This document shows, piece after piece, positions 1 through 62,025 of a DNA stretch of 64,000 bases; within the stretch, counting starts at the first letter, position 1; the number at the start of each line of letters is the position of its first letter. The notes beneath the pieces were generated by a model. It made no database searches and was not told where the DNA came from. It saw only the letters and a list, made by a program, of their open reading frames with translations. This stretch comes from an uncultured Acidobacteriota bacterium (lineage in GTDB: Bacteria > Acidobacteriota > UBA6911), in NCBI GenBank assembly GCA_963827655.1, contig CAWHCF010000019.1:1-64000 (forward strand), read 5' to 3'. Position numbers and translations under genes: made by a program.

Positions 1-59
1 TCTTCGTGGTTAGAGGAGTCTGCGAAATACCGCTAAGACTGAAAACACCAAGAATCTTC

Positions 60-2310
60 CTACTTGCGAAAGGTCCAGCGCAGCTTCAGCGCCAGAAGTT
101 CGGTTTCGGGGATGATTGTCAGGTCGTCGCGGCTCAACAGCAGGCGTTTCCAGCCCCGGTTCCACACGATAAACAGATCGTTGCCCGGCTTGATGGTCCA
201 GCGCAGGCGCATATTGTTGCCGACGTTCTGCGATTCGTTATCGTACTGCAAGAAAGTCGTAAGCATGAGGTTCGGGTTGAAGGCGTAGGCAAGGTTAAGC
301 TGCCAGAGCCGTTGGATGAATTTTCCCTCGTGCAGGTCGCCGAAGTTATGCTCGCTCGCGACGCCGGCCTGCCAGTTTCCATCGGCTGACGTAAAGTTCA
401 AGGAGTTCTGCTGCTGGAGAAGCCGCCCGTTGTAGAAGGTGCCGAACCAGGTTTCGTTCCCGAATGCCCACCGCCGATGCTCGCTGGTTTCAAACTCCAC
501 ACGAAAACGGTCGAACCGATAGCCACCCTCCGGCAACGTAACGCCCTCGGCAATCTCAAAGGGCGCCGGCAAGAACTCATACGAGGGAACCCACGTCAAC
601 TCGAAGGTATCGCCGGACTCCAGCTCCACGTTGATGGGCGACCAGGAGAAACCCTGCGACTCGAGCTGGCCCATGTGGTTTACGACCCGGTAGAAGCGAT
701 GCTCCATGAAATGCTGGCGAATCCACCCAAATGGTCCGTCCTTGCGAGGCCGCGGCTTGAATTCGCAATCAGCGTCAAACCGGCGAGTGCCGGGTCGTGG
801 GAGAAAACCAAGTGCCGGATCGAGCGCTTCACCGAACTGGTTCAACGAAGTGAAACAATCCCAGAGGTCGTTCGGATAATCTATTTTGAACCCCCAACCT
901 GACCGATCGCCCTCAGCGATGTCACCGGCGCTGAAGGCGCTCCAGGCCCCGATCAAAAAATTCTTGTCGTCGAGGAACTCTGAAGTACGCCAGACGCCGT
1001 CGAACCCGGCAAACCTGTTCCGGCGAATGCCGTCGGGAGTTCCGTTCGTTAGCATGGTGCCGACTCGGAGCCTGGAATTCACGTCGTAGGAAACCCTCCC
1101 AGCGAAAAGATTCGTGCCGGGCACGAGAGTGTTCGATCCCTGGAGTGTGGCATCGCGGGTCTGCACATCGAGCAAGCCGATATTCCAGCGGCCCGCCCGG
1201 CCGTTGAGCTTGACGCCTGCATTGATCGGAATCGGCTGGCCTTCGAACAGACCCACGCGGCGCGAAAAGAAGGGGATGAACTGCTCCTCCAGACCAAGGC
1301 CGAACTCGTATTGATTGGCGCCCTCAAGGAAGAACGTGCGGCGCTCAGGGAAGAACAACGGGAATCTCGTCAGGTTCAACTGACGCGAGTCTACTTCCGT
1401 TTCGGCAAAATCGGTGTTGACGGTGAACACCGCGGCCATTTGAGGCGTCATGCGATAAGTGACGTCGATGCCAGGGGAACCTTGCCAGGTGCGGCCTTGT
1501 TCCTGGAAGAAGTCCTTCATGCGCCCGACTACATACGGGCTGATCTCAAGACCCAAACCCTGCCTCAGGTCCTGGACACCGCTCAAGGTTCCTGCCCTGC
1601 TGAGGTCGTAGAAGAAGGAGTCGAGCGTTGCGGAGCTCCAGCGCAGAACGGTTCGGTCGCGCGCGATGTTTCGTTCGAAGTTGACGCCCCAGGAAGACCG
1701 GCCCCCGGCAAAACTGAGTGAGCGTGCAGGAATAATAATCTCGGCCCGACCAGCCTCGATCCGAACGCGACGTTCGCGCATCCCAGATGCCGTCCCAATC
1801 GAGGCTCGGGTCTTCAGGGTCCGCAACCAGCCCGTCGACGCGCGCACCGGCGGCGTTGATCTGAAAAAAGTAGCCCGTGCGCCGATCCCCGTAGGTGTCG
1901 AGGATACGGCCCGGTGTCGTCCGCTTCAACATCGCCATCCCTCTGCATGGTGTGGATGGCAATCCTGAAGGCTCCGTATCGCTGCAATCGAAACCGAAAT
2001 AGAGCTCGTCGGGCTGATCAGGACCCGCACTGGCGGTTCGTACGGGGCAGACTCACCAGGTTTCGGCGACTGCTGAATCAGTTCGGCAATGTTGGCTACC
2101 TGCCGCCACGCCGGCTCATCCAGCTCGCCATCGAATTGGATGGAGCCGCTCGGAGGCGAAGGCGTCCACGGTTGCGCCGGTCGCGATCGCGCTGGGCTGC
2201 CCCAGGACTTCGACCGCAATCAGACAAAACAAGACGGCATAAGGCAGGCGGCTGGTAGACAGGCGAGTCGTGATTTGCGCGGCAACAAAACCACACCACT
2301 GGACACGCAA
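60..2310 (-). CDS. DUF5916 / CBM9-like domain outer-membrane protein, split by frameshifts
   Basis: Consecutive ORFs 2116-2310 (signal peptide-like), 1926-2219 (DGELDEPAW), 1546-1962 (LDTYGDRRTGYFFQINAAG..DWDGIW) and 60-1847 (TVNTDFAETEVD, FPLFFPERRTFFLEG, FFSRRVG, C-terminal WTF) join into one typical DUF5916 protein. Confidence 0.75.
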
Positions 2311-2335
2311 ACTCGAAGAGTGACACGAAGAAACG

Positions 2336-2615
2336 CTAAGATCGCCCGGGGATTTCCCGCTCCGGCGGCGCTTCGCCCGGTTTTCCTGCGCGGCGCAGCC
2401 AGGCGAGCAGCTGCCTCGGCTCCCACTCGCGCAGATCGTCGAAGTACGAATACACGACCGGAGAGATCAGCAGCGTAAGGAGTAAGCAAAGCATTTGCCC
2501 GCCGATGATCGTAACCGCCATGGAGGATCGCGATCCGGCCCCGAGTCCACGACCTCGATCCGCTGGTCGTTGCGCGCGCCCAGGGTAGCGCCAGAGGAAG
2601 AATGCAGCGAGACAT
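2336..2615 (-). pseudogene. Internally deleted remnant of an RND adaptor/permease operon (paralog of 2975-7485)
   Basis: AGGAGG RBS then ATG (MSRCILPLAL), then TLGARNDQRIEVV (adaptor C-terminus-like), then GRGLGAGSRSSMAVTIIGGQMLCLLLTLLISPVVYSYFDDLREW, nearly identical to the C-terminus of the permease at 4219-7485. Confidence 0.8.
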
Positions 2616-2785
2616 GGGAGCCTCCTGGGTTCTGTAAGGGTAGACCAAGGTGTTGAAACGTTTCAAGATAGTGAGTCTCAGGTATCAAAGTGGGATTACT
2701 ATCAAGCGGAAACTGTGGAGACTAAGAACCTCCAAATGATAGGACGCGTTCATCGGGTACATAACCGTTTTTGGGAAAGCGTCCT

Positions 2786-2855
2786 CTCGTTCCCGTTCCC
2801 GTCCACGTTCCCGAAACCGCCGGAAAACGGGAACGGAAACGGGAACGTGTACGAG
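2786..2855. repeat. Inverted hexamer tandem-repeat element (GTTCCC)n...(GGGAAC)n
   Basis: ctcgttcccgttcccgtccacgttcccg ... cgggaacggaaacgggaacgtgtacgag read directly. Confidence 0.85.
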
Positions 2856-2974
2856 GAGGGAATTGCCAGTTTCGTTATACACGATCATCTGTATCCTTTA
2901 ATCCGACCCCCCGCTGTGGCAAAATAAGTCCGTTTGCGCAAAACAGAATCAGCAGAAAAACGTATTAAGCCAAC

Positions 2975-7200: not shown

Positions 7201-7485
7201 GTAACGATCATCGGCGGCCAAATACTCTGTCTTCTGCTGACACTCCTGGTGTCGCCCGTCGTTTATTCGTATTTCGATGACCTGCGGGAGTGGCGTCCCG
7301 CTCGCCTGCTCGCAGTATTTCGGTCCCGCGACGTCCAACGGCAAAACCCCCGCATAGGAATTGCGGATTGGGGATTTCGGATTGGCAGTTTGCCGTCACA
7401 ATGCCGTCCAATCCGCGATCCGAAATCTGAAATTCCAATCAGGGCGCGGAGCCGTGAGGGATCAGGTGCACGGCGGACGCCTTGA
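4219..7485 (+). CDS. RND efflux permease (AcrB/MdtB-like HAE1 family)
   Basis: SIKRPVFA, GIVIDDAIVVLENI, GIVKKNTILQVD, RLRPILMTT motifs. The true stop may be TAG at 7355-7357 if the preceding C-run holds one extra base. Confidence 0.95.
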   Translation: MTLADISIKRPVFAFMMTSALVVMGLFSYRELGLDLMPKTDYPSVTVRVMLPGASPEEVETQIAKPIEEVVNTINGIDEVSSFANQGFAYVSISFVLERDIDTAVQDVRDKVATIVSRFPRDTLPPEITKFDPDSAPILTLAISGNRTQKEITEIADKKIKQELETVKDVGDIQFMGERRREIQLLLDADRLKAYGLTVEQVRAAVQRQNVEIPGGSFITGPSEIALRTMGRVLKVEDFNRVILAYRQGSVITLSDVGRAIDTIEEPRSTARLNGRPAVALEIRKQSGTNTVAVVDALIARLERVKRILPADIVVQTIRDQSRFIRRSVHDIMMHLILGSLLASAVVFLFIRNLRSTVIAALAIPTSIIGTFTIMKLFGFTMNNMTMLSLSLATGIVIDDAIVVLENIFRYVEEKGITPKLAASAATNEIGLAVMATTLSLVVIFLPVAFMTGQIGRFFFSFGIVSAAAIMISMFVAFTLTPALCAIWLRPKDAKAHGGSKKGLYGLIDRVYGRMMVWSLHHRFVMLLIAAIVSVSALLLFPRIGKELVPEDDQSEFSVSVRMPTGTSLERSDRYIQDIERELQQLPEVQTIFTSITRYSNIYVGLTPHEERKLSQQEIMRLARLRLRSYTMQAASKAPGGGARISISGGTDLSGASTSGGGQRSRGGNQSTNRLELNLQGPDIDQLYEYAQALIVKLRTIPGVVDPDSYFEPALPELRVNIDRSRAADLGVQIDSLAGSLRTLVGGEEVSRFREGDDNYIVRMRLDEQFRNAESMGDLLIPSTTQRVVRVSDIAQLRLEKGPASISRYNRQRNIRMSANLDGLPLVAAVAKAREKIDELNMKLGYQASFGSSARTLEEASNDFVIAIILAIAFIYMVLASQFNSFIHPLTIMTSLPLSLPAGLLALMAMGMTVNVYSAIGLLMLFGIVKKNTILQVDYTNTLRAEGMERHEALIMASHVRLRPILMTTIAIIAGMLPIAFGRGAGAGSRASMAVTIIGGQILCLLLTLLVSPVVYSYFDDLREWRPARLLAVFRSRDVQRQNPRIGIADWGFRIGSLPSQCRPIRDPKSEIPIRARSREGSGARRTP
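7357..7436. repeat. Inverted heptamer tandem-repeat element (GGATTKC-like)...(GMAATCC-like)
   Basis: ggaattgcggattggggatttcggattgg ... ccaatccgcgatccgaaatctgaaattcc. Confidence 0.85.
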
Positions 7486-9501: not shown

Positions 9502-9515
9502 CGGATGGAGGTAGT

Positions 9516-11471: not shown

Positions 11472-11593
11472 GATTTACGATTGACGATTGACGATTGACG
11501 ATTGGGAGACTGCGAATGATTGTTCAATCCAGGCGATCACGGGCATGGACCTGTCTGGCATTCATCGTCAATCGTCAATCGTAAATCGTCAAT
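11472..11593. repeat. Inverted heptamer element (GATTGAC)n...(AATCGTC)n
   Basis: Left arm 11472-11504 and right arm 11563-11593 fill the zwf-opcA spacer. Confidence 0.92.
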
Positions 11594-11595
11594 TG

Positions 11596-13139
11596 TTATA
11601 GTCGGCGCCAGCGGCGTCCGTCACGCTCCAAAAGTTTGTCGGCTTCAGCCGGGCCCCACGATCCTGAAGCATACTTAGGGATGGGTCCGCCGTCGGTCGA
11701 GGACCAGCGATCCAGAAAAGGTTGCACGAGAGACCAGGCGGCTTCTACCGAATCGATCCGGTCGAACAGTGTCGGATCTCCCAGCATGCAATCCAGGAAC
11801 AAGCGCTCGTAGGCGCTGGCCAGATGGACTCCGAAGGTGCTTCCATAGCGGAAGTCCATGTTTACTGGGCGTATGTTAATGAGATTGCCCGGGGAGCTTG
11901 GCGGCGAATTTCCACGTGATCCCTTCATTGGGCTGAATCCGCATCGCCAGAACGTTGGACTCCACCTCGTCCGTACCGGCCTGGCGAAAGATGAGATGTG
12001 GGGTCCGGTGAAATACAATGGCTATCTCCGTAGTGCGCTTGGCCAGGTTCTTTCCAGTGCGCACATAGAAGGGCACACCCGCCCACCGCCAGTTGTCGAT
12101 CGACGAAACGGAGCGCGGCGAAAGTTTCGGTCTTCGAATCGGGAGCAACGCCCTTCTCCTGGAGATACCCGGGCACGTGTTTACCTGCCGCAAATCCAGC
12201 ATCATACTGGCCGCGCACGGCAACGTGGTCAATCTCCTCGGGAGTGAAGGGACGAATCGACCGCAGGACTTTGGCCTTTTCGTCACGGACCGAGTTGGGG
12301 CCGAAATCCGGCGGAGGCTCCATTGCCACCAGCGTCAAGAGTTGCATCATGTGATTCTGAATCATGTCGCGCAGCGCGCCGGCTTCCTCGTAGTAGGCGC
12401 CCCGGCTTCCCACGCCGATGTTTTCGGCGGCCGTGATCTGGACGTGGTCCACGTAGTGGCGGTTCCAGATAGGTTCGAAATTGATGTTGGCAAAGCGAAA
12501 AACCAGAAGGTTCTGAACCGTTTCTTTCCCCAGGTAATGATCGATTCGATAGACCTGGTCTTCTGCGAAGACGGCGTTCACCTCCCGGTTCAGCGCGCGC
12601 GCGGATTGCAGATCGTGGCCGAACGGCTTCTCGATGATGATTCGCGCCCAGCCGGACCCATCCACGCCTTCCCGCGCCATTCCTGACGCTCCGAGATTTC
12701 GGACGATGTCGACATAGTCGCTGGGGGCGGTCGCAAGATAAAAGATCCGGTTCCCGCCGGTGCCGCGGCGAGCGTCGTACTCGGCCAGGCATTGCTTGAG
12801 ACGAGAGTAGCTGTCCGGTTCGTGGAAGTTAGCCGGTAGATAATGGATCCCCTGAGCGAACGGCTCCCAGGTCGCGGGATCGGAGGGGCCTCCTTCGCCA
12901 GCCTTGTCCACCCATTCGCGCAGCCTGGTTCGATATTCGTCGTCACTCAAGGGGGAGCGCGACAGCCCCAGGATCGAGAAGCCTCCGGGGATTAATCGCT
13001 TCCGGGAGAGATTGTAAAGTGCCGGCACAAGCTTGCGCCGCGTCAGGTCACCCGAGCCACCGAAGATGACCATGACGCATGGCTCCGGGCTGCGACTCAT
13101 TCGCCTGCCGTGACGTAGCGGATTGGACTCATCAACCAT
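11596..13139 (-). CDS. zwf: Glucose-6-phosphate 1-dehydrogenase, frameshifted near the 3' end
   Basis: [61 protein letters not shown]. Confidence 0.95.
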
Positions 13140-13242: not shown

Positions 13243-13310
13243 ATTGACGATTGAAAACCCAGCTCGCCGTCTAGTTTAATCGTCAATCGTCAATCGTCAA
13301 TCGTCAATCG
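13243..13310. repeat. Inverted heptamer element (GATTGAC)n...(AATCGTC)n
   Basis: attgacgattga ... aatcgtc x4 in the tkt-zwf spacer. Confidence 0.88.
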
Positions 13311-17305: not shown

Positions 17306-17346
17306 GACGTTCCCTCAAATTTCCGGGCGATTATACCTTAGTGCTT

Positions 17347-17410
17347 CTTCGTCTCTTCGCGCCTTAGTGGTATTTCGCAAGCGCCTGACCACAAAGACAC
17401 GAGGAAACAC
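17347..17410. repeat. Inverted nonamer-type element
   Basis: cttcgtctcttcgcgccttagtggt ... accacaaagacacgagg. Confidence 0.7.
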
Positions 17411-18525: not shown

Positions 18526-19011
18526 ATGAAACGGACAACGTTAGCGATATGCTTCACCGTGGTATGTAGTCTCGCGCTGGTGCTGTATGCCCAGGCGCCA
18601 CCCCCTGCCCAGACGCCTTCCCAGGCGCCCGCTGCACAGGCGCCGCCTGCCCAGGCGCCGGTTGCCCAGGCGCCGGCTTCCGCGGAGAGAGGCTCGACGA
18701 CTCTGACCGGTTGCTTGAAAGCCGGCGCCGAGCCGGATAGCTTCATACTCACCAATATTGGCCCCGCCGGATCTGACACGGCTCAGAAGAGTGCGCCTGG
18801 AGAGCTGGCAAAGACCGATGTTTCCTACAAATTGAGCGCTGACGGCGGCGTAAAGCTTAAGGATCATGTCGGCCACAAGGTCGAGGTTACCGGCACGCTC
18901 GCCGGGAAGGGCTTCACCGCCACCCCGCCTGCCTCTACCGAGAAACCAAAAGCTGAAATGGCTAACTTGAAAGTAACCGCCATCAAGCACATCTCACCGT
19001 CCTGTCCATAA
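18526..19011 (+). CDS. Small secreted OB-fold-like protein with Pro/Ala/Gln linker (DUF5818-like)
   Basis: Signal peptide, 15-bp QAPxA repeats, TLTGCL...LKDHVGHKVEVTG...SPSCP. Confidence 0.8.
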   Translation: MKRTTLAICFTVVCSLALVLYAQAPPPAQTPSQAPAAQAPPAQAPVAQAPASAERGSTTLTGCLKAGAEPDSFILTNIGPAGSDTAQKSAPGELAKTDVSYKLSADGGVKLKDHVGHKVEVTGTLAGKGFTATPPASTEKPKAEMANLKVTAIKHISPSCP

Positions 19012-22239: not shown

Positions 22240-22250
22240 TTGCGGAAAGC

Positions 22251-22286
22251 GGAATCGGGAATCCGTGAATCCGGATTCCCGATTCC
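22251..22286. repeat. Short inverted heptamer element (GGAATCG)...(CGATTCC)
   Basis: ggaatcgggaatccgtgaatccggattcccgattcc between the sortase and its substrate. Confidence 0.7.
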
Positions 22287-22310
22287 AGGCGCTCGCCTTG
22301 CCGGCTCGGC

Positions 22311-26386: not shown

Positions 26387-26574
26387 TAACACTGGACTGA
26401 TTTTCCCAGCACGGAATTTAACTGCAGTGGGGACCGGGAACCCGTGGGTCATCCGCCGAACTTGCCATTTTTCCCGCTCGCCCCTGGGCTGGTAAAAAAG
26501 AGAGCCGTATCTTAACCCATGGCAATAACGGCTTACAACGCTCCTCTTGATTTTTTGGCAGGATTCTTGTTGTT

Positions 26575-26643
26575 TCTTCGTGTCCTTGCGTCCTGGTGGT
26601 ATTTGGTTAGCTGCCTGACCCCAAAGACGCCAAAGACACGAAC
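26575..26643. repeat. Inverted nonamer-type element
   Basis: cttcgtgtccttgcgtcctggtggt ... accccaaagacgccaaagacacgaac. Confidence 0.8.
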
Positions 26644-26664
26644 GCAAAACAGAAAGGAACATGC

Positions 26665-35482: not shown

Positions 35483-35968
35483 ACCGCGAAGACGCGAAGT
35501 CCTCGAAGAGTCAAGAGGAGTTAATAACTCTTTGAATGCCTTGCTTGATCACAGGAACATTGAAATTAATCAGAAACCCAAGGTGTTTTCCGGTTAGCTT
35601 CAGCTGGGAAATGATCTGCGCGAGAAATACAGGGTTTAGACGACTCGACGCACTTTAGTTCACACATGACGAGGTCGTCCACCAGGACATCAAGTCGCAG
35701 ACCCTCAGAGAATGAGACCCCGTCATACACAAGGGGCACGACTAACCTGACGGCGGTAAGGTATCCGACGTTTGCTTAACTCGTGGCAGAAACAGGCCTC
35801 ATAAATTGATTCTAGCAGGCCGGGTCCGAGAGTCTTATGAACAGCATATGCCGCAGCTACAATCGCCTTTGCGAGTTCCTCTTCCCGCGTCGACACGACC
35901 GTCATGCTTTAATTGTTTCACGGCCCCGTTAAAGCATTTCAGAATCTTTGTGACTTCGAGTCTTAGCA
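35483..35968. mobile_element. Nonamer-type inverted-repeat element enclosing a GxxExxY gene
   Basis: Arm accgcgaagacgcgaagtcctcgaag (35483-35508) is complementary to ctttgtgacttcgagtcttagc (about 35946-35967). Mobility is inferred, not shown. Confidence 0.55.
35511..35905 (-). pseudogene. GxxExxY protein (PD-(D/E)XK-like), frameshifted
   Basis: VHKTLGPGLLESIYEAC, then LRLDVLVDDLVMCELK, then LKLTGKHLGFLINFNVPVIKQGIQRV in successive frames. Confidence 0.88.
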
Positions 35969-39962: not shown

Positions 39963-40797
39963 TTGAAGTTACGCGTCTCGCTGGTAGACTACTTGAACTC
40001 AGCCCCGCTCGGCTGGTCGTTTCTCCACGGTCCGCTTAAAGGGAAATTTGAGGTGGTTCGATCGTCCCCGGCAGAATGCGCCGATCAACTGGCCCGGGGC
40101 GAAGTGGATGTGGGCTTGATTCCCAGCATCGAGTATCAGCGCATCCCTGATCTTCGGATTATTCCAGGAATAGCTGTTGCCGCATCCAATCGGGTCCGCA
40201 GCGTCCTTCTGGTGCGGCCCAAGGGACGACCGGAGATTCGTTCCGTAGCTCTGGACACGAGTTCCCGGACCTCCGCAACCCTCGTGAGAATACTTCTCGA
40301 GCGCCGCATGGGACTGCGGCCTGAGCTTGTGCCGCACATGCCGGAAATAGATGAGATGCTGGGAAGATGCGACGCCGCCCTCATTATCGGAGATGCGGCT
40401 CTAAGACTCCCGGCCGACAAGTATGAGGTTCTCGATCTGGCACAAGCATGGATCGAATGGCAGAAGCGTGCCGTTCGTTTTTGCCTTCTGGGCCTGCCGC
40501 GCCGAATTGGAAGCAGACCTGGAGCTGGTTCCGATATTTCACGAAGCTCGATCCTGGGGGTTGGGAGCGCGCGAGGAAATTGCCGAAGTGTACGCCGGTA
40601 TTCTCAACCTGTCTGAGGCCTCTCTGCGGGAGTATCTGCACTTCAACGTTGACTATAACCTGGGTCGCCCCCACGTGGACGGGTTGACAAGGTTTTTCCA
40701 CCTCGCCTTCGAGATGAACGCCATTCCTGAACTTCGGCCGCTCGACTTCCTACCAATGATGTCGATTGACGATTTACGATTGACGATTGACGATTGA
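39963..40797 (+). CDS. mqnA: Chorismate dehydratase MqnA (futalosine pathway), one frameshift near 40470
   Basis: YLNSAPL, VRSVLL, SSRTS, ALIIGDAAL, DLAQAW, then PFVFAFWA in the next frame. Confidence 0.9.
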
Positions 40798-40838
40798 AAA
40801 AAACTGGATTCGATGGATCAATCGTAAATCGTGAATCG
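40763..40838. repeat. Inverted heptamer element (GATTGAC)n...(AATCGTM)n
   Basis: Five units at 40763-40797 contain the mqnA stop; three inverted units at 40818-40838. Confidence 0.92.
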
Positions 40839-40840
40839 GC

Positions 40841-41371
40841 TCACTCGAGCTCAACGTTCCAGTACAGATAGTCGCGCCATGCCTCCGGCGCGCTCCGGAC
40901 TCCAATCGTGATGTGGAGCATCGTCGGCACCCACTCGGGCTCCCTGGGTTGCCGGATCAATCGCATACCAGCCTCTTCGGGCGTCTGCCCTCCCTTCCGG
41001 TGGTTACATTCGAAGCAGCAGGTGACGATATTGCTCCACGTCTTGCCTCCCCCCTTCACGATGGGAATCACGTGGTCAAAGGTCAAATCCTGAGTCGAGC
41101 ACTTCTCCCCGCAATACTGGCACGTGTGGTGGTCCCGCGCGTATATGTTAGCCCGGCAGAACTTTACATGCTGGAAGCGTTTCCGGATCTTTACGTACTT
41201 CAGAAGCCGCAGTACACTGGGCAACTTTATGCTGAAGCTGATGCTTCGGATTTCGCGGTCATACTCCGCCAATACCTCGACCTTTCCCTGGTAGAGCAAG
41301 CTAAGGGCACGCTTCCAGGAGATGATGTTGATGGGCTCATAACTGGCATTCAGAACTAGAGTATGTTCCAT
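40841..41371 (-). CDS. HNH endonuclease (McrA-like)
   Basis: LVLNASYEP, RDHHTCQYCG, TFDHVIP, WSNIVTCC..CN..K. Confidence 0.92.
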   Translation of the reverse strand: MEHTLVLNASYEPINIISWKRALSLLYQGKVEVLAEYDREIRSISFSIKLPSVLRLLKYVKIRKRFQHVKFCRANIYARDHHTCQYCGEKCSTQDLTFDHVIPIVKGGGKTWSNIVTCCFECNHRKGGQTPEEAGMRLIRQPREPEWVPTMLHITIGVRSAPEAWRDYLYWNVELE

Positions 41372-41600
41372 CGTATGTCCTGGCGATGAGCTAACAGCAA
41401 AATGCCTTGGTTCGAGAAAAGTCCAGTAAAGGCGGGAGATTAAAATGAAGCGCGTATGGGTAACTGAAGACTCTTATACCTCCTCGGCTCGTAATGTTTT
41501 TAACGCGATAATTGAAATACAAGATCCACTGCAAGTCAAGTGTTAATAAGACTTGGAGTAAATAGCCATGTGATTCTCCAGGTCTCGGCCCTCTTGATGG

Positions 41601-46008: not shown

Positions 46009-46035
46009 TTTAGTGTCTTCGCGTCTTCGTGGTTA
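46009..46035. repeat. Nonamer-type repeat arm
   Basis: tttagtgtcttcgcgtcttcgtggtta; tcttcgtggttagag also occurs at 1-15. Confidence 0.65.
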
Positions 46036-46832: not shown

Positions 46833-47918
46833 CTAATTGCTATATTGCAGCACTTTTTGCTTGAAGGCGTCGAGGGTAAGCCGGCCCGCCTTGTACTCTG
46901 TAATAACCGACTTCTGGACCGACATTATTTCCCGGTGCGATGACTCCCCCTCTGAATCAGCCAAGGTGAAGACTTTCGCGCCGCCCTCCTCGGCTGTCAA
47001 GACCAGATTGATAAACTCGTTGGGTTTCACGTGCGTGAGAGAATCCCCATGGTTGGCCAGGGCCTCGATGAGGTAGATCTTGACCTGCGCCAGACGCTCC
47101 AGAAGCTGCTTTCGATTGATCTCTGCCTCTTCCCGCCGTTTCACGACGCTGCGTTGAAGATCTTCGACTCTCTTCCGGATTTCTTCCTCTCTCTGGGGGC
47201 TTTGCGGCGCTGGAGCCGGCTGTGGCGCCTGCGGCGGCTGAGGAGGAGCCACAGGAGCCCCTGGGCTACTGGTTTCGCGGGCTTTGGTCCGCGATCTCTT
47301 GCCGGCCCACGAACGCCACCGGGAATTCCTCCGGCGACACCGCCAGGAACTCCGCCCACGATACCGCCGGGAACTCCCCCAGGAACACCGTCGAGGAGTC
47401 CAAGAATCATCTCGAACTGGTGCACCGACAGCTCTTGCTCTTGAGCCTCGAGGTCGGCGAGCTGGACATCAAGCTGTACTACTTGCTCGTCTAATTGCTC
47501 CTGTAACTGTAGTTCCCGCAGAGCCTTGATCTCCCCGTCCAACTTCAATTGATCGACGTCGATTTCTCCAACGGCTTTGACCGGCTTGGCCTTCGCGTAG
47601 CGCAGCGCCGAAACCGGGATGATGAAAGTGGCTCCCTGACCGTATAGATAAAAGGCGCTCACACGAGACCCTCCCCAGGGACCCTGAAAGGTAAAGTGCT
47701 TGAGTACCTGAATCTTCATCTCTCCCGGGCTTCGGGGTCGACGAGCCGCGGAGTTCCTTCAGGACGAAGTTGAGCGTCGTGTTGAGGATCCCTTTCATGA
47801 CCTCGAGTTCCTGCTGCGATTTCTTCAGGTCGAAGAGATCCGGCCGGGCGCCTTGAGCAGCGCCCCATGAAAGTAATCCCATACTGATCATCAGCAAAAA
47901 GGTACAAAGATGTCTCAT
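46833..47918 (-). CDS. Secreted protein with GGV(P/A)GG repeats and coiled coils, frameshifted
   Basis: ORFs 47469-47918 (signal peptide), 47141-47719 and 46833-47252 join; third gene of the ECF operon. Confidence 0.7.
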
Positions 47919-49373: not shown

Positions 49374-49558
49374 TAGGGCCCGCTGTCTCTGTTATCGCCT
49401 CCAGTTACAGTCCTTTTGACTCAATGGGATCACAAAAAGTCGAGTTAATTTAACGATTTTATGCCAACCTTGAACAGGGAAATTGACGACTGACCAATAA
49501 GTCTCCAGAATTAGGTAGTTAGGCGTTATGTCCGAGCTTACGAGAATTTTGTTCACGT

Positions 49559-49830
49559 TAGAAGCCAGAAGTCAGAAGTCAGGAGCAAGAATGTGTTGGT
49601 AATAATCCACGTTACATGAAAGAATACCATCCAATATGGTTGGCACTGGATGGCAGAAAGCTCATGAATTTGTGCTCGAAGCATATCGTTACACGGAATC
49701 GTTCCCGCAGCGCGAGATCTATGGCCTGGTGCTCAAGAAGGAAGGATGAGTCTCCTGGAGGAAGTCAGCCGCCTGCTGAATGCATATGCAAAGGCGATTC
49801 TGGCTTCTGGCTTCTGACTCCTGGCTTCTA
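49559..49830. mobile_element. Heptamer inverted-repeat element (AGAAGYC)n enclosing a four-helix-bundle gene remnant
   Basis: 34-bp arms at 49559-49592 and 49797-49830 are complementary at 30 of 34 positions. Mobility is inferred. Confidence 0.65.
49651..49817 (+). pseudogene. Four-helix-bundle (23S rRNA IVS-type) protein remnant, internally deleted
   Basis: Manual translation gives WQKAHEFVLEAYRYTESFPQREIYGL (N-terminus), then MSLLEEVSRLLNAYAKAILASGF* (C-terminus) in another frame; the core is missing. Confidence 0.85.
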
Positions 49831-49892
49831 TCCCGCTGCTTTTGGCGGGATATCAAGGGCGCAGTCGTTGCCTGGTTAGCCCGGCAAGCTAA

Positions 49893-49925
49893 AATCGTCA
49901 ATCGTAAATCGTCAATCGTCAATCG
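49893..49925. repeat. (AATCGTC)n right arm; probable partner aattgacgactgac at 49481-49494
   Basis: aatcgtcaatcgtaaatcgtcaatcgtcaatcg read directly. Confidence 0.85.
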
Positions 49926-51943: not shown

Positions 51944-51969
51944 AACCACCAAGACGCAAAGAAACGAAG
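51944..51969. repeat. Nonamer-type repeat arm
   Basis: aaccaccaagacgcaaagaaacgaag. Confidence 0.55.
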
Positions 51970-51985
51970 CATCGCCAACGGGGAA

Positions 51986-55415: not shown

Positions 55416-56386
55416 GAATACGAACACTCTCCGCCATTGCAGTTTGTCTCTTGCTCAGCCTCACGGCCTGGGGGAAGACTTCCCGCATCAAAAACGTCGG
55501 CGAGTACCCCAATTTCCTTGCTCTCAGCCCGGACGGCAGGATTGCCTATGTGACCTCGTTTGGAACCAGCGAGGTGCTTGCGGTCGATCTCGCCCAGAAG
55601 GCGGTGACGAAAAGCGCAGTCGTCGGAACGTCTCCCCTGGGCATCTCAGTGACGAGTGACGGAAAACTGGCAGTTATCGCATGCAAGGATTCCGGTACCG
55701 TGTCTTTCCTGAACCTGGACACTTTTCGTGTGGAGGCCGACATAAACACGAGTGGCGCGCCGAACGCCGTCGCCATCGACCCGAAGGGTTACCGCGCCTT
55801 CGTAACTAATTTCGGTAGAAGCAAGGAAGGCAATCTGCACATCGTGGACATTCGACAACGAAGCGTGGAGGCCAACGTGACGATGGGAATGGCGCCGATC
55901 GCCGTTGCGGTTTCGCCGGTCACTGATTTGGTCTATGTCGTCAATGGCGGGTCCAACGAAGTCTGGGTGGTGAATCCGGAGAAGAAAGCGGTAACCACCA
56001 AGATCACGGTTGGCGAGGCCCCTGATGGAATCGCCATTACGCCCGACGGTAATCGCATCTTCGTCAGCAACAGCCGCTCGAACGATGTTTCCGTGATCGA
56101 TACTCAACTGGGAAAGGTAGTCGTCACAATACCGGTGGGCAAGAGACCCTTCGGAATAACCGTGAGTCCGGATGGCAAGCGCGTCTTCGTGGTTAACACA
56201 GAGTCTCGCACGGTCTCGATCCTTCCGGCGGATCTTACCAGCCTCCAGGCGCAGTCCTTCAATGTGGAAAAGGGACCGGTCGATATCGAGGTAGCGCCCG
56301 ACAATCGGACGGTGCTGGTTGTGAACGAACAATCCCATTCGCTCACCGTTGCCGACATGCCTCAAACAGCAGGCGGTAAGCAGTAA
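55412..56386 (+). CDS. YncE/YVTN beta-propeller repeat secreted protein
   Basis: Signal peptide and repeated VG..P..IA.SPDG..V.V.N units. Confidence 0.9.
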   Translation: MRIRTLSAIAVCLLLSLTAWGKTSRIKNVGEYPNFLALSPDGRIAYVTSFGTSEVLAVDLAQKAVTKSAVVGTSPLGISVTSDGKLAVIACKDSGTVSFLNLDTFRVEADINTSGAPNAVAIDPKGYRAFVTNFGRSKEGNLHIVDIRQRSVEANVTMGMAPIAVAVSPVTDLVYVVNGGSNEVWVVNPEKKAVTTKITVGEAPDGIAITPDGNRIFVSNSRSNDVSVIDTQLGKVVVTIPVGKRPFGITVSPDGKRVFVVNTESRTVSILPADLTSLQAQSFNVEKGPVDIEVAPDNRTVLVVNEQSHSLTVADMPQTAGGKQ

Positions 56387-56406
56387 GCAGAATCAACTGC
56401 TTACTG
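56367..56406. repeat. Inverted heptamer element (GCRGTAA)n...(TTACTG)
   Basis: cagcaggcggtaagcagtaagcag ... ctgcttactg; the arms hold the stop codons of both convergent genes. Confidence 0.8.
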
Positions 56407-57348
56407 TTCTTGAACAAACCAGTCGACGAATCTACGGATTCCCGTTCTGAATCCGGTCGTTGGCTGATACCCGAGGATACGGGTGGCGCGGCTGACGTCC
56501 GCAAAAGTTATCGACATGTCACCCGGCTGCGGAGGTAAGAATTTCAGCCGGGCTTTCTTCTGCAGGGCATTCTCGAGTTCGGAAACAACTTCGAGCAGCG
56601 TGACCGTCTGCGATTCTCCCAGATTGAGGATCTCGAAAGCAGGATTGAGCCGGAGGGCGGCCACGATTCCGGAAACAATGTCATCGACATACGTATAGTC
56701 CCTGCGCGTGCCGCCGTCGCCAAAAACGGGGACCTCTTTGTCCTCCCAGATCAATCGAGCGAACTTATGAATTGCCATTTCGGGCCGCTGGCGCGGCCCA
56801 TAGACGGTGAAAAAGCGAAGACAGGTGAACCTCATGGCATAGTTGTGCGCGTACGTGCGGCAGAGCAGCTCTCCGGCCCGCTTGGTCGCAGCATAGGGAG
56901 ATACTGGCGTGTCCACGGGATCGTCTTCAGTGAACGGAACTCGTGAGCTCGACCCGTAGACCGAGGACGAGGAGCCGAAGATGAAGTTCTGAACTTCGAA
57001 TTCCCGGGCAAGCTCCAGGATGTTTACGGTGCCGGTTACATTCACATCAGTGTAGATTCTTGGGTTTTCGAGCGAAGGCCGAACTCCGGCCCAGGCCGCA
57101 AGGTGAACAATGGCCTCGGGCCGGCTCTCTTTGACCGCGGCGCGCAGGTTATTCCAATCCAGAAGATCGACTTCATGCACCGCCGCCGGGCCTGATCTCT
57201 GAAGGTCGCGCACGTTGCGGCGTTTCAGATCGGGGTTGTAAAAGTGGTTGAAGTTATCGAGCAGGGCGATTTCATGCTTGAGCTTCTGGAGTCTTGACGC
57301 CAGGTGATACCCTATGAACCCGGCCCCGCCGGTAATTAACACCCGCAT
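56401..57348 (-). CDS. NAD-dependent epimerase (UDP-glucuronate 4-epimerase-like)
   Basis: TGGAGFIG, HLAAWAGVRPS, SSSSVYG, YAATK, RFFTVYGP. Confidence 0.92.
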   Translation of the reverse strand: MRVLITGGAGFIGYHLASRLQKLKHEIALLDNFNHFYNPDLKRRNVRDLQRSGPAAVHEVDLLDWNNLRAAVKESRPEAIVHLAAWAGVRPSLENPRIYTDVNVTGTVNILELAREFEVQNFIFGSSSSVYGSSSRVPFTEDDPVDTPVSPYAATKRAGELLCRTYAHNYAMRFTCLRFFTVYGPRQRPEMAIHKFARLIWEDKEVPVFGDGGTRRDYTYVDDIVSGIVAALRLNPAFEILNLGESQTVTLLEVVSELENALQKKARLKFLPPQPGDMSITFADVSRATRILGYQPTTGFRTGIRRFVDWFVQEQ

Positions 57349-58118: not shown

Positions 58119-58140
58119 GGGCAAAAATCTCCTTGCGATG

Positions 58141-58166
58141 CCTTAGCGTCTTCGAGTCTTGGCGGT
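58141..58166. repeat. Nonamer-type repeat arm
   Basis: ccttagcgtcttcgagtcttggcggt. Confidence 0.6.
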
Positions 58167-58279
58167 AAACGTACGCCATTGGTTGACATTCTGCGAAGCG
58201 GTATGTTACTAGAAAGCTTTCCTAAGCCTACGGTTCAGGGTTTAGATCACCTCACCAGTTTTGCAGCAAACTATAAACT

Positions 58280-60337
58280 ATGCTGACCTATGTTTGGTTA
58301 ATTCCTATCCTCCCGCTGGCAGGAGCGGCCCTCGGCGGTTTGCTAGGGCTGATCCATCTCCGAAGAACAGGACAGCGACTGGCCAAGCCGATCGTCTCTG
58401 CCATCGCTTTAGCCTCCGTCGGCCTGGCCTTCCTCCTGTCGGCGATTGTCGTCTTCCAGCTTTTCTGGGTAGAGCATAAAGAGATCTACATCACGGATCT
58501 TTTCACCTGGCTTGATGCCGGCTCGGTTCGCCTGGCCGATGGCAGTCTCGCTTCGTTCGAGATCCCCTGGGGATTCCAGCTGGATCCTCTCTCCGCCGTC
58601 ATGATTCTGGTGGTGACCGGAGTCGGGTTTCTGATCCACGTTTACTCGACGGGATACATGGCGGACGATCCCGGATACTACCGCTTCTTTGCCTACCTCA
58701 ATCTCTTCATGTTCGCCATGCTGACGCTGGTTCTGGCGAACAACTTCGTTTTAATGTTTGTCGGGTGGGAAGGGGTCGGACTCTGTTCTTATCTCTTGAT
58801 AGGGTTTTATCTGGACCGAAAGAGCGCAGGCGACGCCGGCAAAAAGGCCTTCGTCGTGAACAGGATCGGTGACGCCGGATTTATCCTCGGCATGATCCTT
58901 ATCTTCGTCCACTTCGGGTCACTGAGCTATGAAGAAGTCTTCAACAAAGCGGCCGCTTTGCCGGTAGAGGGGGAGCCCGGCTTCATCTTCTGGGCGACGG
59001 TCTGTCTCTTTATCGGCGCCGCGGGGAAGAGCGCCCAGATTCCGTTGTACGTCTGGCTTCCCGATGCAATGGAGGGCCCCACCCCTGTCAGCGCGTTGAT
59101 TCACGCCGCCACCATGGTGACGGCGGGAGTGTACATGGTATGCCGCTGCAACGCCCTCTTCAGCCGCTCGCCCGACGCAATGCTGATCGTGGCGACCGTG
59201 GGAGCGGCTACCGCCCTGTTTGCCGCCACGATCGGGTTCGCTCAGACCGACATCAAACGGGTCCTGGCCTACTCAACCGTGAGCCAGCTGGGTTACATGA
59301 TGGCCGCCCTGGGAGCGGGAGCCTTCATCGCCGGCGTTTTCCACCTGATGACCCACGCATTCTTCAAGGCGCTCCTCTTCCTCGGATCGGGCTCGGTAAT
59401 CCTGGCCATGCACCATGAACAGGACATGACCAGAATGGGGGGACTTCGCAAGTACCTCCCGTGGACATATCGCACCATGCTTGTCGGCACTCTGGCCATT
59501 GCTGGAGTTCCAGGGCTGGCCGGTTTTTTCAGCAAGGACGAGATCCTCTGGAAAGTCTGGAGCAACGGCCATCCTGTTATCTGGTTTGTACTCTGGCTGG
59601 GAGCCGGCATGACGGCGTTCTACATGTTTCGCCTCATCTTCCTGACCTTCTGGGGCCAGGAAAGGATGAGCGAACACACCAAGCATCATATACACGAGTC
59701 ACCCAACAGTATCGTTCTGCCTTTGATCATTCTGGCCGTCCTCTCGATTGTCGGGGGATGGATCGGACTGCCTGCGTGGTTGGGAACAAACTATTTCGAC
59801 CGATTCCTGGAACCTGTGCTCCGGATACCCGAAGGAGCTTTGCACCACGAGGCGGCGCATTCCGTCGCTCAGGAGGTGCTGTTCACCGCCCTGTCGGTCG
59901 GGATTGCCGGCTTAGGAATCTTCCTCGCGTACCGCTTTTATGTCGTCGATCCGGAAGCCCCGTCGCGGATAACCGCGCGCATCAGGGGACTCTACAATCT
60001 TGTGTATCGGAAGTATTACGTGGATGAAATCTATGACGCCCTCTTTGTGAATCGCACCAAGGATCTGGCAAACGTTTGCGCCTTCGTGGACTCCACGTTT
60101 GTGGACGGCGCCGTGAATGCCACAGCCGCGCTGACGCGCCTGACTGCGACGTTGTCGAGGATTTTCGACACCTATGTGGTCGACGGTCTGGTCAACTTGA
60201 TCGGCTGGATCAACATGGTTTTGAATCGAGTTTTAACCTCTCTTCAGACCGGGCTCATCCAGCGCTACGCACTGGGAGCGGTCTTTGGGATTGTTTTCTT
60301 TATTCTGATTTACTTCCGCTTTCTGGTTGTGTCTTGA
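58280..60337 (+). CDS. nuoL: NADH-quinone oxidoreductase subunit L with extended lateral helix
   Basis: GWEGVGLCSYLLIGF, NRIGD, KSAQIPLYVWLPDAMEGPTPVSALIHAATMV, HAFFKALLFL. Confidence 0.96.
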   Translation: MLTYVWLIPILPLAGAALGGLLGLIHLRRTGQRLAKPIVSAIALASVGLAFLLSAIVVFQLFWVEHKEIYITDLFTWLDAGSVRLADGSLASFEIPWGFQLDPLSAVMILVVTGVGFLIHVYSTGYMADDPGYYRFFAYLNLFMFAMLTLVLANNFVLMFVGWEGVGLCSYLLIGFYLDRKSAGDAGKKAFVVNRIGDAGFILGMILIFVHFGSLSYEEVFNKAAALPVEGEPGFIFWATVCLFIGAAGKSAQIPLYVWLPDAMEGPTPVSALIHAATMVTAGVYMVCRCNALFSRSPDAMLIVATVGAATALFAATIGFAQTDIKRVLAYSTVSQLGYMMAALGAGAFIAGVFHLMTHAFFKALLFLGSGSVILAMHHEQDMTRMGGLRKYLPWTYRTMLVGTLAIAGVPGLAGFFSKDEILWKVWSNGHPVIWFVLWLGAGMTAFYMFRLIFLTFWGQERMSEHTKHHIHESPNSIVLPLIILAVLSIVGGWIGLPAWLGTNYFDRFLEPVLRIPEGALHHEAAHSVAQEVLFTALSVGIAGLGIFLAYRFYVVDPEAPSRITARIRGLYNLVYRKYYVDEIYDALFVNRTKDLANVCAFVDSTFVDGAVNATAALTRLTATLSRIFDTYVVDGLVNLIGWINMVLNRVLTSLQTGLIQRYALGAVFGIVFFILIYFRFLVVS

Positions 60338-60393
60338 GACGCCGCGGCGGGACGGACCGTGGCACGCCAGATTCGAATCCGGGGAGTTAGTCT

Positions 60394-61989
60394 ATGGATT
60401 TCTTCATGGCCAACATACTGAACATCGTCTGCTACTTCCCCCTGGTGGGGATGGTGGCGATCATGTTCATAAGGCGCGAAAACGAGGCTGCGATCAAGTG
60501 GGTGGCCAACATAACGGGCTTGATCGGCTTCCTGATTTCGATTCCCCTGATTACTTCTTTCAACGATCCGCGCTACATCGATCAATCGACTAATTTTCGA
60601 TTTGTTTTCGAGCGCGAGTGGATCCAGCTGATAGGCGCGAAGTACAAATTCGGCATCGACGGGATAAGCCTTCTGCTGGTGCTGCTCACCACGCTTCTGG
60701 GCTCTATCGCCATTCTTTCCTCGTGGAATGCGATCACCGAGCGGTTGAAGGAGTACTACGCTTTCATTCTGCTGCTGCAGACCGGGATGCTGGGTGTCTT
60801 CCTGGCGCTCGACTTTCTGGTCTTTTACGTATTCTGGGAAATCATGCTGGTTCCCATGTATTTCCTGATCGGCGTCTGGGGAGGACCGAGAAAGTTATAT
60901 GCGGCCATAAAATTCTTTCTCTATACCCTGGCGGGCTCAGTGCTGATGCTGGTCGGGATGCTGGCCATTTACTTCTATCAATACAACACCACCGGAGTTT
61001 ATTCGTTTGACATTCTGGCGTTTCAAAAACTCGGGTTTCCCCAGACGATCCAGTACTGGGTTTTTCTGGCGTTCTTTGTCGGATTCGCGATCAAGGTTCC
61101 AATGTTTCCCTTCCATACCTGGCTGCCGGATGCCCACGTCGAGGCTCCGACTGCCGGCTCGGTGATTCTCGCCGGCGTTCTCCTGAAAATGGGGACCTAC
61201 GGCTTCGTCCGATTCAGCCTGCCCATGTTCCCCTGGGCCACGATGCACTTTCTCCAGCCGATGCTCATCCTGTCGTTAATAGGGATCATCTATGGCGCTC
61301 TCGTGGCGATGATGCAGAAGGACATGAAGTCGCTGGTGGCTTATTCGTCGGTGAGCCACCTTGGATTCGTGATGCTCGGGGTGTTTGCGGCCACTCCTGT
61401 AGCCCTCCAGGGCGGCGTCCTTCAAATGATCAACCACGGTATCTCAACCGGGGCGCTGTTCCTGATCGTGGGAGTCATATACGAGCGCCGCCATACCCGA
61501 TTGATCTCGGAATATGGCGGGTTGAGTCACATCATGCCCGTCTATGCCACGGTGTTTCTCATCATGACCCTGAGCTCCATAGGGATGCCTGGCCTGAACG
61601 GGTTCATTGGTGAATTCTTCATCCTGCAAGGAACTTTCGCGGCGCCCGGCCTGTGGATCTACGCCGCCATTGCGGTGGTGGGCATCGTTCTGGGCGCCGC
61701 CTACATGCTGTGGCTCTACCAGCGAGTGATGTTCGGGAAACTCGAGAATCCTCTCAACCAGAGCCTCCCCGACTTGAACTGGCGGGAGATGGTAACCTTC
61801 GTCCCGCTGATCATCCTGGCATTCTGGATTGGAATCTACCCGTCCTACTTCACAAAGTTCCTGGATCAGCCGGTCAATGCTATCGTGGAGCGCGTGAGGA
61901 CGGATTACTTCAAAGCAGGGCGCGCACAGAATCTTCCGCTCCTCCCTGTACAGGGCCAACAACAGCAAGCAGTAGGCGGTAGGCAGTAA
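60394..61989 (+). CDS. nuoM: NADH-quinone oxidoreductase subunit M
   Basis: GIDGIS, FWEIMLVPMY, FHTWLPDAHVEAPT, LLKMGTYG, AYSSVSHLG. Confidence 0.96.
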   Translation: MDFFMANILNIVCYFPLVGMVAIMFIRRENEAAIKWVANITGLIGFLISIPLITSFNDPRYIDQSTNFRFVFEREWIQLIGAKYKFGIDGISLLLVLLTTLLGSIAILSSWNAITERLKEYYAFILLLQTGMLGVFLALDFLVFYVFWEIMLVPMYFLIGVWGGPRKLYAAIKFFLYTLAGSVLMLVGMLAIYFYQYNTTGVYSFDILAFQKLGFPQTIQYWVFLAFFVGFAIKVPMFPFHTWLPDAHVEAPTAGSVILAGVLLKMGTYGFVRFSLPMFPWATMHFLQPMLILSLIGIIYGALVAMMQKDMKSLVAYSSVSHLGFVMLGVFAATPVALQGGVLQMINHGISTGALFLIVGVIYERRHTRLISEYGGLSHIMPVYATVFLIMTLSSIGMPGLNGFIGEFFILQGTFAAPGLWIYAAIAVVGIVLGAAYMLWLYQRVMFGKLENPLNQSLPDLNWREMVTFVPLIILAFWIGIYPSYFTKFLDQPVNAIVERVRTDYFKAGRAQNLPLLPVQGQQQQAVGGRQ

Positions 61990-62025
61990 GCAGAGGGTGC
62001 CTGCTTACTGCTGCCTACTGCCTAT
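61962..62025. repeat. Inverted heptamer element (GCAGTAG)n...(CTACTGC)n
   Basis: gcagtaggcggtaggcagtaagcag ... ctgcttactgctgcctactgcct; contains the nuoM stop. Confidence 0.9.

Follow-up and report, generated by a model that had tools for sequence, protein, structure and literature searches.

The window analysed here, that is, the whole stretch of 64,000 nt from contig CAWHCF010000019.1 of an uncultured Acidobacteriota bacterium, has a G+C content of about 57%, and a family scan of its open reading frames (ORFs) identified the housekeeping genes acrAB-like, ubiD, tkt-zwf-opcA-pgl, thiI, fusA, topA, dprA and nuoLM. The closest named relatives of its RND pump come from Acidobacteriota. Dispersed among these genes are repeat elements, numbered E1 to E16, whose arms are built of short tandem units and are paired in inverted orientation in the complete copies. 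Two of the elements enclose a small gene, which belongs in one case to the GxxExxY family and in the other to the four-helix-bundle (4HB) family. The tie of this architecture to the two protein families is real and general, and it is described below together with the empty copies and with the readings that may explain them.

E9 encloses a GxxExxY gene of the PD-(D/E)XK type (35514..35908, minus strand; PF13366/TIGR04256). Its left arm (35483..35518), which consists of ACC followed by (CGCGAAGA-like) units, pairs across the gene with the right arm at 35944-35968, which consists of complementary (CTTYGNG) units. The gene is full length and covers the whole profile in three frames (profile positions 5-50, 50-86 and 83-125), separated by two frameshifts. 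With 51.7 bits the first piece exceeds the cut-off of 35, and the three pieces are 92, 83 and 95% identical to an intact relative (P0121), which scores 130.9. A first-pass annotation, made from the letters of the DNA alone, had proposed GxxExxY cargo for some of the elements. The family and the arms agree with that proposal, but one continuous ORF was not seen. Similar splits occur elsewhere in the window. Between 9516 and 13196, positions 1-134 of the G6PD_C profile of zwf fall in one ORF and positions 203-296 in another, pgl is divided in the same manner (21-151 and 181-225), and opcA is probably split too; the last 13 or so codons of acrB (7320-7352) are out of frame relative to intact relatives. 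These splits suggest either indel errors of the assembly or several recent pseudogenes. Because zwf, pgl and the acrB tail show splits like that of the GxxExxY gene, indel errors in the assembly are probable. The GxxExxY gene is therefore not called dead, and its frameshifts may be assembly errors too.

E12 is a nested element around the remnant of a 4HB gene (49651..49814, plus strand; PF05635/TIGR02436), which lies in two frames and has an internal deletion. The inner arms are AGAAGYC heptamers (49557..49592) and GRCTTCT heptamers (49797..49830), and the latter also supply the end of the 4HB reading frame, with its final residues and stop codon. An inverted-repeat scan pairs 49559-49592 with 49797-49830 over 34 nt at 88% complementarity, so that the remnant is bounded by a terminal inverted repeat of the kind seen in intervening sequences (IVSs) of rRNA genes. 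This cassette is nested inside a second pair of GATTGAC arms. The outer right arm (49893..49925) has 4.7 GTCAATC units, and the outer left arm (49481..49497) has only about two degenerate units.

The ORF at 49616-49879, proposed in the first-pass annotation to be an IVS-type 4HB gene, has no Pfam or NCBIfam match as an ORF, and it stays below the curated cut-off over the whole PF05635/TIGR02436 domain. Its N-terminal piece matches PF05635 below the cut-off (E 7.3e-5, 23.4 bits vs 33.8), and all 15 of the 15 proteins returned by a database search with this piece carry PF05635. An intact relative (P0242, 126 aa; 4HB-family score 120.1 vs a cut-off of 24) could be aligned to the window DNA with residues 18-44 at 96% identity and residues 91-126, in another frame, at 81%. 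By this comparison about 46 codons have been deleted, and the first 17 residues are not recognisable. The remnant was not significant (E about 0.1) with a profile built from collected 4HB proteins. The family assignment rests on the PF05635 match of the N-terminal piece, the database search and the alignment with P0242; the gene is no longer intact. The same internal deletion is found in an 87-aa protein (P0241) from a 1.99-Mb contig, and the deletion is therefore not an artefact of the window assembly. Judging from its sequence, E12 is a decay intermediate, in which intact arms surround a deleted 4HB gene that has intact relatives elsewhere.

Repeat arms around 4HB and GxxExxY genes

The link between arms and cargo was examined in a set of 19 4HB genes from at least 7 phyla. 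The 4HB protein of an Acidobacteriota metagenome-assembled genome (MAG; L072) matched 32 plasmid records in a tblastn search, and 16 of these loci, chosen for taxonomic spread, were fetched; the set was completed by the genes of L072, of a Nitrospirales locus (L028) and of the window. The best local period was 7 in 38 of the 38 flanks of these genes. The controls were the outer ends of these loci, with 5 of 32, and random windows, with 30 of 200. An association of 4HB genes with repeat arms, first proposed from the window, is thus supported. In 15 of the 19 cassettes the two arms of the same cassette had a complementarity score of at least 15, compared with a mean of 8.4 (sd 3.2, n=342) for arms paired across cassettes.

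The units themselves differ (GATTTTA, GATGAAG, AATCGTA, AAGTAAA, GATTGCA, TAATTCG, AATTCAA, CAGTNAN, CACTGGT and GGAAAGT), and unit variants are common to both arms of one cassette and different between cassettes. The type of unit tracks the similarity of the 4HB proteins, the GATT-type clade being 60-70% identical across Chloroflexota, Cyanobacteria and Nitrospirota. Related copies share ancestry, and therefore this match is no proof of co-adaptation. The arms often abut or overlap the start and stop codons, and in several cassettes the first unit of the 3' array is the stop codon of the ORF. All annotated neighbours point the same way as the cassette gene in 13 of 16 cases for 4HB and in 6 of 6 for GxxExxY; examples of such neighbours are RND adaptor/permease, DUF1156/Swt1-type HEPN, helicase/methylase, fabD/fabG and radA with its neighbour.

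GATTGAC arms behave in the same way. In L072 and in an Acidimicrobiia MAG (L059), GATTGAC pairs spaced 495 nt and 431 nt, respectively, each enclose a PF05635 gene; that of L072 sits between nuoI and nuoJ, and that of L059 was recovered by translating the segments between arms in all frames. The Nitrospirales locus L028 has two cassette copies with an identical junction between arm and gene. When the 4HB profile was run on the 442,707 nt of loci fetched around GATTGAC arrays, it found 4 genes, and all 4 lie within 60 nt of an array. As a separate observation, 4HB cassettes recur in defence-type gene rows, at L119 and L121 (Nostoc and Anabaena plasmids), at L115 and L118, and at L116, L117 and L123. 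The cassettes are located in the cas2/cas1 gap, with opposite orientation, between genes for DUF1156 and a Swt1-family HEPN protein, and beside helicase/methylase genes. Relatives of the 4HB and GxxExxY cargo of the window match no defence model in PADLOC.

The sample for GxxExxY arms is small, with 8 plasmid genes. Three of the 8 (L129, L130 and L131) have, as in the window, inverted 8-9-mer arms with ACC/GGT ends on both sides, and one (L132) has an arm of this type only upstream. The other four have no such arms, and two of these have direct repeats. A tie of GxxExxY genes to repeat arms, suggested earlier from the window, is therefore true of some genes and is less regular than that of 4HB genes. 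The direct repeats, which flank the genes of L133 and L135 and are about 22 nt or more in length, hint at another mode of insertion. No GxxExxY gene was found near the GATTGAC arrays of the fetched loci. Unit length seems to go with the cargo family, at 7 nt for 4HB genes and 8-9 nt for part of the GxxExxY genes, and the heptamer and 8-mer elements of the window would accordingly be empty forms of two kinds.

Empty hairpins and solo arms in the window

Nine complete hairpins of the window have 6- or 7-mer units (E2, E3, E4, E5, E7, E10, E14, E16 and the inner arms of E12). There are also three 8-9-mer hairpins, three solo arms and two gene-enclosing arm pairs. Tandem Repeats Finder (TRF) located 11 period-7 arrays in the 64 kb. 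Its period-6/7 arrays lie at 2788-2847, 7360-7384, 11472-11504/11564-11593, 13278-13310, 40763-40797/40820-40838, 49560-49582/49798-49829, 49893-49925, 56376-56390 and 61969-61993. For periods of 5-10 there are 23 TRF arrays in the window, against a mean of 6.4 and a maximum of 12 in 50 dinucleotide shuffles. Four strict inverted pairs are present, and no shuffle of the 50 gave one. Fifteen of 20 arm segments lie wholly outside ORFs of at least 100 aa, although those ORFs leave just 15.6% of the window free; the remaining 5 touch gene ends or mechanical ORF extensions. The folding z-scores, taken relative to mononucleotide shuffles, range from -3.5 to -6.4 for E2, E3, E4, E5, E7, E8, E10, E14 and E16, and the stems of the empty hairpins are 15-30 bp long. 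Because of the excess over shuffles, the folding and the placement of arms outside ORFs, the repeats of the window are real. All coordinates given in the first-pass annotation hold repeats as it described them, and its claim of one architecture with differing units is borne out by at least 7 different units, in tandem-unit arms that form inverted pairs.

The GATTGAC hairpins are E4, E5 and E10. E4 (11472..11596) lies between the zwf stop codon and opcA, in a gene row on the minus strand; it has a 61-nt loop, a minimum free energy (MFE) of -56.3 and a z-score of -5.9, and 11472-11495 pairs with 11564-11587 over 24 nt at 100%. E5 (13243..13310, z -3.6), in the tkt/zwf gap, has a short left arm and a right arm of 4.7 perfect units. 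Both are thus inside the tkt-zwf-opcA-pgl row. E10 (40763..40838, z -6.4) stands between convergent mqnA-like and HNH genes, its inverted pair matches at 95%, and a variant unit GATTTAC in one arm is mirrored by GTAAATC in the other. The HNH endonuclease gene (40841-41371, minus strand, 176 aa) ends 3 nt from E10 and matches HNH_5, with weak matches to IscB/Cas9/PtuB-like HNH domains; upstream of it is an A+T-rich stretch (41372-41600) without a partner arm.

The other hairpins of this class have different units. E2 (2785..2848, z -4.1) is made of the tandem hexamers GTTCCC and GGGAAC and lies upstream of HlyD-AcrB genes. Just over 100 nt from it, inside the ORF 2220-2666, the segment 2369-2566 (minus strand) encodes 66 residues with 76% identity to the C-terminal end of the adjacent RND permease. 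Pfam misses this segment, which is, by this similarity, part of a second pump gene that is truncated and oppositely oriented. E3 (7357..7436, z -3.5), with GGATTKC heptamers, is located between the convergent AcrB and UbiD genes and begins 5 nt past the AcrB stop codon used by a 100%-identical relative (P0001). E7 (22249..22288, z -5.6), with GGAATCG/GGGAATC heptamers, is beside a sortase gene. E14 (56367..56408, z -3.9) and E16 (61962..62026, z -6.2) have GCAGTAR units and supply stop codons: E14 overlaps those of two convergent genes, and the first units of E16 are the last codons and the stop codon of nuoM.

The second class had been labelled as nonamers, and this label was not confirmed. 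The best period is 8 in 8 arm segments and 9 in 2, and the eleventh segment is a 12-nt stub that is too short to judge; the 8-mer unit is TCTTCGYG-like. In the empty hairpins of this class the loop is bordered by the GGT and ACC ends of the arms, and E1, E6 and E8 have similar loops. E1 (1..54; MFE -14.3, z -1.8) has its left arm cut by the window start and a loop like that of E6 and E8 reversed. E6 (17341..17410), with TCTTCGYG-like arms and a loop between GGT and ACC, is upstream of a macro-domain gene and folds with a z-score of -2.1, and E8 (26570..26648, z -3.5) lies in the gap between the divergent thiI and aquaporin genes. The solo arms are E11 (46009..46033), with GGT at its end, E13 (51944..51972), with ACC at its start, in the gap between the asparaginyl/aspartyl-tRNA synthetase gene and the next gene, and E15 (58136..58166), with GGT at its end, in the coaE/nuoL gap; these do not fold (z +0.6, +0.6 and -1.3, respectively). 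The gene-enclosing pair of E9 also belongs to this class. The window has longer-period tandem repeats at 18604-18681 (15/30 nt) and 47335-47390 (24 nt), in ORFs without a family match, and these are unrelated to the hairpin elements.

GATTGAC arrays across phyla and inside genes

A collection of 596 Gb was scanned with three GATTGAC units (a 20-mer), which matched at least 112 loci of many phyla; the counts that follow are among the matches listed. They include Chloroflexota, Bacteroidota, Acidobacteriota, Planctomycetota, Verrucomicrobiota and Nitrospirota, and further Desulfobacterota, Gemmatimonadota, Ignavibacteria, Pseudomonadota and Actinomycetota. An inverted partner is present in the stored DNA of 33 of the 112 loci, and 79 arrays are solo. 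By context, 20 arrays are in ORFs, 30 between tandem genes, 12 between convergent genes and 8 between divergent genes, and for 10 the context was undetermined.

Some arrays are read in frame as part of a protein. Thirty-five of 117 lie in frames that are open for at least 120 nt on both sides. The peptide is QSSIVNR-like in all cases, since each frame of the opposite strand contains TGA. Seventeen ORFs were scanned and the positions of their domains computed. In 9 of them the array is inside a Pfam domain envelope, namely that of the PolA 3'-5' exonuclease, a receiver domain, GlyS, squalene-hopene cyclase, GSCFA, HATPase_c, LpxB, an NAD-binding domain and MetH; in HATPase_c and LpxB the whole hairpin is inside. 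Six other ORFs have the array between domains of one frame, and 2 were unplaced. Arrays within genes cannot grow by slippage from nothing, and therefore either pre-formed arrays or an array-making process must enter the DNA.

Two further features of the arrays were observed. In L095 (1-620), three heptamer arrays (GCGGATT, GATTGAC and CTTGCAT) lie within 620 nt of one PyrK-like frame. Very long GATTGAC/GATTGAT arrays occur at or near the ends of MAG contigs (L004 1900-2188, L014 125-188, L067 24-118, L074 1-54 and L079 1-54); the longest reach about 290 nt and one contains a run of N, and such arrays seem to break assemblies.

Origin of the elements and comparison with known systems

On balance, we lean towards the view that the elements are intact, decayed and empty copies of selfish small-gene cassettes that resemble the IVSs of rRNA genes. 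A complete cassette would consist of a single ORF, some 125 codons long, flanked by two arrays of short units in inverted orientation, with 7-nt units for Avd-like PF05635 proteins and 8-9-nt units with ACC/GGT ends for part of the GxxExxY PD-(D/E)XK proteins. Such cassettes would occupy transcribed spacers, mostly between co-oriented genes, much as they are placed within 23S rRNA genes. In the host transcript the arms may pair into a duplex of 20-35 bp that RNase III would cut, as has been shown for rRNA IVSs, and this would make the insertion harmless. The tandem units would keep the arms pairable after slippage. Loss of the ORF would turn cassettes into empty hairpins, and further loss would leave solo arms. 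We infer that cassettes are mobile and are processed by RNase III, and that cassettes or arrays may spread by a route that needs no transposase of their own. The earlier proposal that empty copies are derivatives fits the deletion intermediate of E12, but many of the solo arrays may never have had cargo.

Several observations weigh against this view. GATTGAC arrays are mostly solo or short empty hairpins; among the matches listed, 26 of 33 pairs are spaced by no more than 100 nt and only 4 loci hold a 4HB gene, so that most arrays may never have carried a gene. One pair (L063) with a spacing of 280 nt holds no recognisable gene. Both polarities occur among the listed pairs, with GATTGAC as the 5' arm in 24 and reversed in 9, and the empty 8-mer hairpins of the window are opposite in polarity to the filled E9, since GGT and ACC stand at the loop in the former and at the outer ends in the latter. 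Inverted arms on both sides were found in only three of the eight plasmid GxxExxY genes, and 11 of the 16 plasmid 4HB loci are cyanobacterial. A test for pairing at the RNA level was negative, as stem mismatches are not enriched in G.U on the sense strand (21 G.U vs 38 A.C in 809 aligned positions), although the numbers are small and the repeat registers ambiguous. Solo arrays between co-oriented genes have no strand preference among the matches listed (19 vs 11). The fetched loci contain no orthologous spacer for a comparison of filled and empty sites, as blastn with the window matched only nuoL of L072 and a fusA-like stretch, at 66%. In addition, 90% of heptamer repeats in Xanthomonas are reported to lie between the same genes in two species (PMC4692102), which argues against frequent movement.

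It is somewhat unlikely, though worth weighing, that the arrays came first, as ordinary long simple sequence repeats (SSRs) that are grown by polymerase slippage, with heptamers favoured, and are sometimes inverted, and that 4HB and GxxExxY genes inserted or were retained near them, while the empties never carried a gene. This would agree with the predominance of solo arrays (79/112 listed), with the occupation of every gene context and with the nesting of the window 4HB cassette in a GATTGAC pair, as if in a landing site. It would also agree with published accounts. Heptamer repeats are over-represented in many bacteria, mostly intergenic and near gene ends; they have been explained by slippage, and their position is conserved in the two Xanthomonas species (PMC4692102). 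In Geobacter metallireducens there are 49 four-unit heptamer copies, GGACCGG, between and within genes (PMC2700814), and the number of units in one 23S IVS varies among strains (PMC4990558). However, slippage cannot build at least 3 units inside conserved codons of polA, lpxB and glyS without a seed, and the presence of the 20-mer in many phyla contrasts with about one chance match in 596 Gb by our own estimate. Arms that share cassette-specific unit variants, units that follow the protein clade, a period of 7 in 38/38 4HB flanks and stop codons formed by the first 3' unit in several cassettes are also not what this explanation would predict.

An improbable alternative is that the elements are hairpins mobile at the DNA level, of the repetitive extragenic palindrome/bacterial interspersed mosaic element (REP/BIME), miniature inverted-repeat transposable element (MITE), IS200/IS605 or attC type, and are moved by an enzyme encoded elsewhere, with the genes as passengers or with GxxExxY as a homing nuclease. 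The in-frame insertions in genes, reportedly also a feature of Rickettsia palindromic elements (RPEs), would fit such elements, as would the nesting of one element in another in E12, the absence of an RNA-specific wobble signal in the stems and the membership of GxxExxY in the PD-(D/E)XK nuclease superfamily. 4HB proteins are not known to have a nuclease motif, which counts against this alternative. No transposase, RAYT-type Y1 enzyme, integrase or reverse transcriptase was found among the 68 ORFs scanned in the window, in agreement with the first description of the elements as transposase-free; target-site duplications were not searched. The arm sequences differ between copies (at least 7 units), unlike terminal repeats or REP sequences recognised by one enzyme. 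A role of the IVS ORF in mobility has already been proposed (PMC4990558).

A bolder form of the favoured view, which we regard as quite improbable, is that the cassettes, which would be present in ten or more bacterial phyla, propagate themselves and have no transposase of their own. The Avd-like 4HB protein would recognise its own heptamer unit, which would explain the match between unit and clade, and together with a host polymerase or reverse transcriptase it would lay or maintain tandem units at both ends in a reiterative, telomere-like manner. The element might then enter rRNA genes, operon spacers and reading frames and be removed from the transcript by RNase III, and solo arrays in genes would be scars.

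It is very unlikely that the elements are host cis-regulatory signals unrelated to selfish DNA, such as terminators, attenuators or arrays for the binding of a regulator: five of them (E3, E9, E10, E14 and E16) are flanked by convergent genes and binding sites of a global regulator were proposed for the Geobacter repeats (PMC2700814), but others stand inside gene rows and between divergent genes, no complete short-tandem-repeat hairpin of the window has the T run of a Rho-independent terminator with its G+C-rich stem, no Rfam family matches, and the in-frame copies and the tie to two gene families would be left unexplained. The window has 65 terminator-like sites, as many as expected from shuffles, and no more than two small stems among them overlap part of an element. 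GATTGAC contains TTGAC, and a promoter scan picked TTGACG at 13300 and 49483 within -35-like ladders (13273-13300 and 49483-49511); it found nothing else at the hairpins than these hexamers inside arrays.

If the link of arms and cargo holds genome-wide, rRNA IVSs, heptamer repeats and the two gene families would join as one object, a small cassette in host transcripts that decays into hairpins and solo arrays. The Avd-like 4HB and the GxxExxY proteins form two very large families without a known function, whose members are annotated in thousands of genomes with no context given. If the link holds, ordinary operons could serve to test how IVSs arise and move. It would also explain many intergenic repeats, as well as the odd QSSIVNR-type inserts that are read in frame in conserved proteins. 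For annotation, such arrays call for caution, as they shift stop codons and break assemblies.

Integron cassettes also have one small promoterless ORF and an imperfect hairpin and are co-oriented with their neighbours. However, they stack beside IntI and their attC sites have R/L core boxes, whereas those of the window are scattered among housekeeping genes over 62 kb, and the 68 ORFs scanned include no integrase (attC core sites were compared by eye only). Readings of the two polarities as integron-like attC sites or as permuted "circle junctions" were considered and set aside, since both polarities occur with and without cargo. The variety of units and the lack of a transposase or Y1 enzyme among these ORFs also separate the elements from MITEs and REP/BIME. 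RPEs are said to be short palindromes that, like the arrays, lie between genes and in frame inside conserved protein genes, but to be unique sequences of 100-150 bp with no tandem short units and no ORF. The small dispersed repeats (SDRs) of Nostoc punctiforme are reportedly tiny repeats embedded in tandem heptamers and nested in one another, for which an RNA intermediate has been proposed; unlike the window elements, which are the arrays, they are said to be pieces of 21-27 nt inserted into arrays and to have no cargo gene. The short tandemly repeated repetitive (STRR) sequences of cyanobacteria are reportedly tandem heptamers as well and are listed as kindred of the Xanthomonas and Nostoc repeats. 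The window arrays are of the heptamer SSR/STRR kind, with at least 3 tandem 7-nt copies at many, mainly intergenic loci.

An excess of heptamers has been noted since 2007 (as cited in PMC4692102). Xanthomonas GGGAATC heptamers are often paired in inverted orientation, and the Nostoc unit is GGGGAYT (PMC4692102); E7 has GGGAATC-like and E3 GGGGATT-like units. The excerpted text of that work reads the repeats as G-quadruplex formers and makes no link to 4HB or GxxExxY genes (PMC4692102). The GATTGAC, GCAGTAR and AGAAGYC units are not G-rich. In Geobacter metallireducens, families with 4-5 tandem heptamers include 15 MTYCTGA sites drawn as hairpins, and the portion of the paper available reads these repeats as sites for global regulators or as RNA elements, with no cargo noted (PMC2700814).

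The closest known system is the IVS of 23S rRNA, in which a 4HB ORF lies between inverted repeats and which RNase III excises. In one such IVS the 4HB ORF, itself in decay, is preceded by 3-4 tandem heptamers, the first of which is the place where RNase III cuts (PMC4990558). PF05635 proteins resemble Avd, the accessory protein of diversity-generating retroelements (PMC10053308), and P0242 matches the Avd model below its cut-off. The 4HB domain is also reported in inserts of 16S and 23S genes of bacteria of the candidate phyla radiation (CPR; bioRxiv 10.1101/2024.02.27.582315). The window elements share with the 23S IVS an ORF of the 4HB family and, on either side of it, the inverted repeats of a long stem. 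They differ in that all of them lie in mRNA spacers or at the ends of protein genes and not in a helix of 23S or 16S rRNA, that most are empty, and that a second cargo family and units of 6, 8 and 9 nt are added. A scan of the whole window with Rfam at E up to 1 found no rRNA; its single match was unrelated and below threshold. Our literature search, in which most subscription journals were outside the scope, found no paper that states a general cassette rule. Tandem heptamer arrays, inverted pairs, intragenic copies and heptamers in a 23S IVS stem are already known from earlier work (PMC4692102, PMC2700814, PMC4990558), and the present finding is an extension of what is known of IVS elements and heptamer repeats, not a category of its own.

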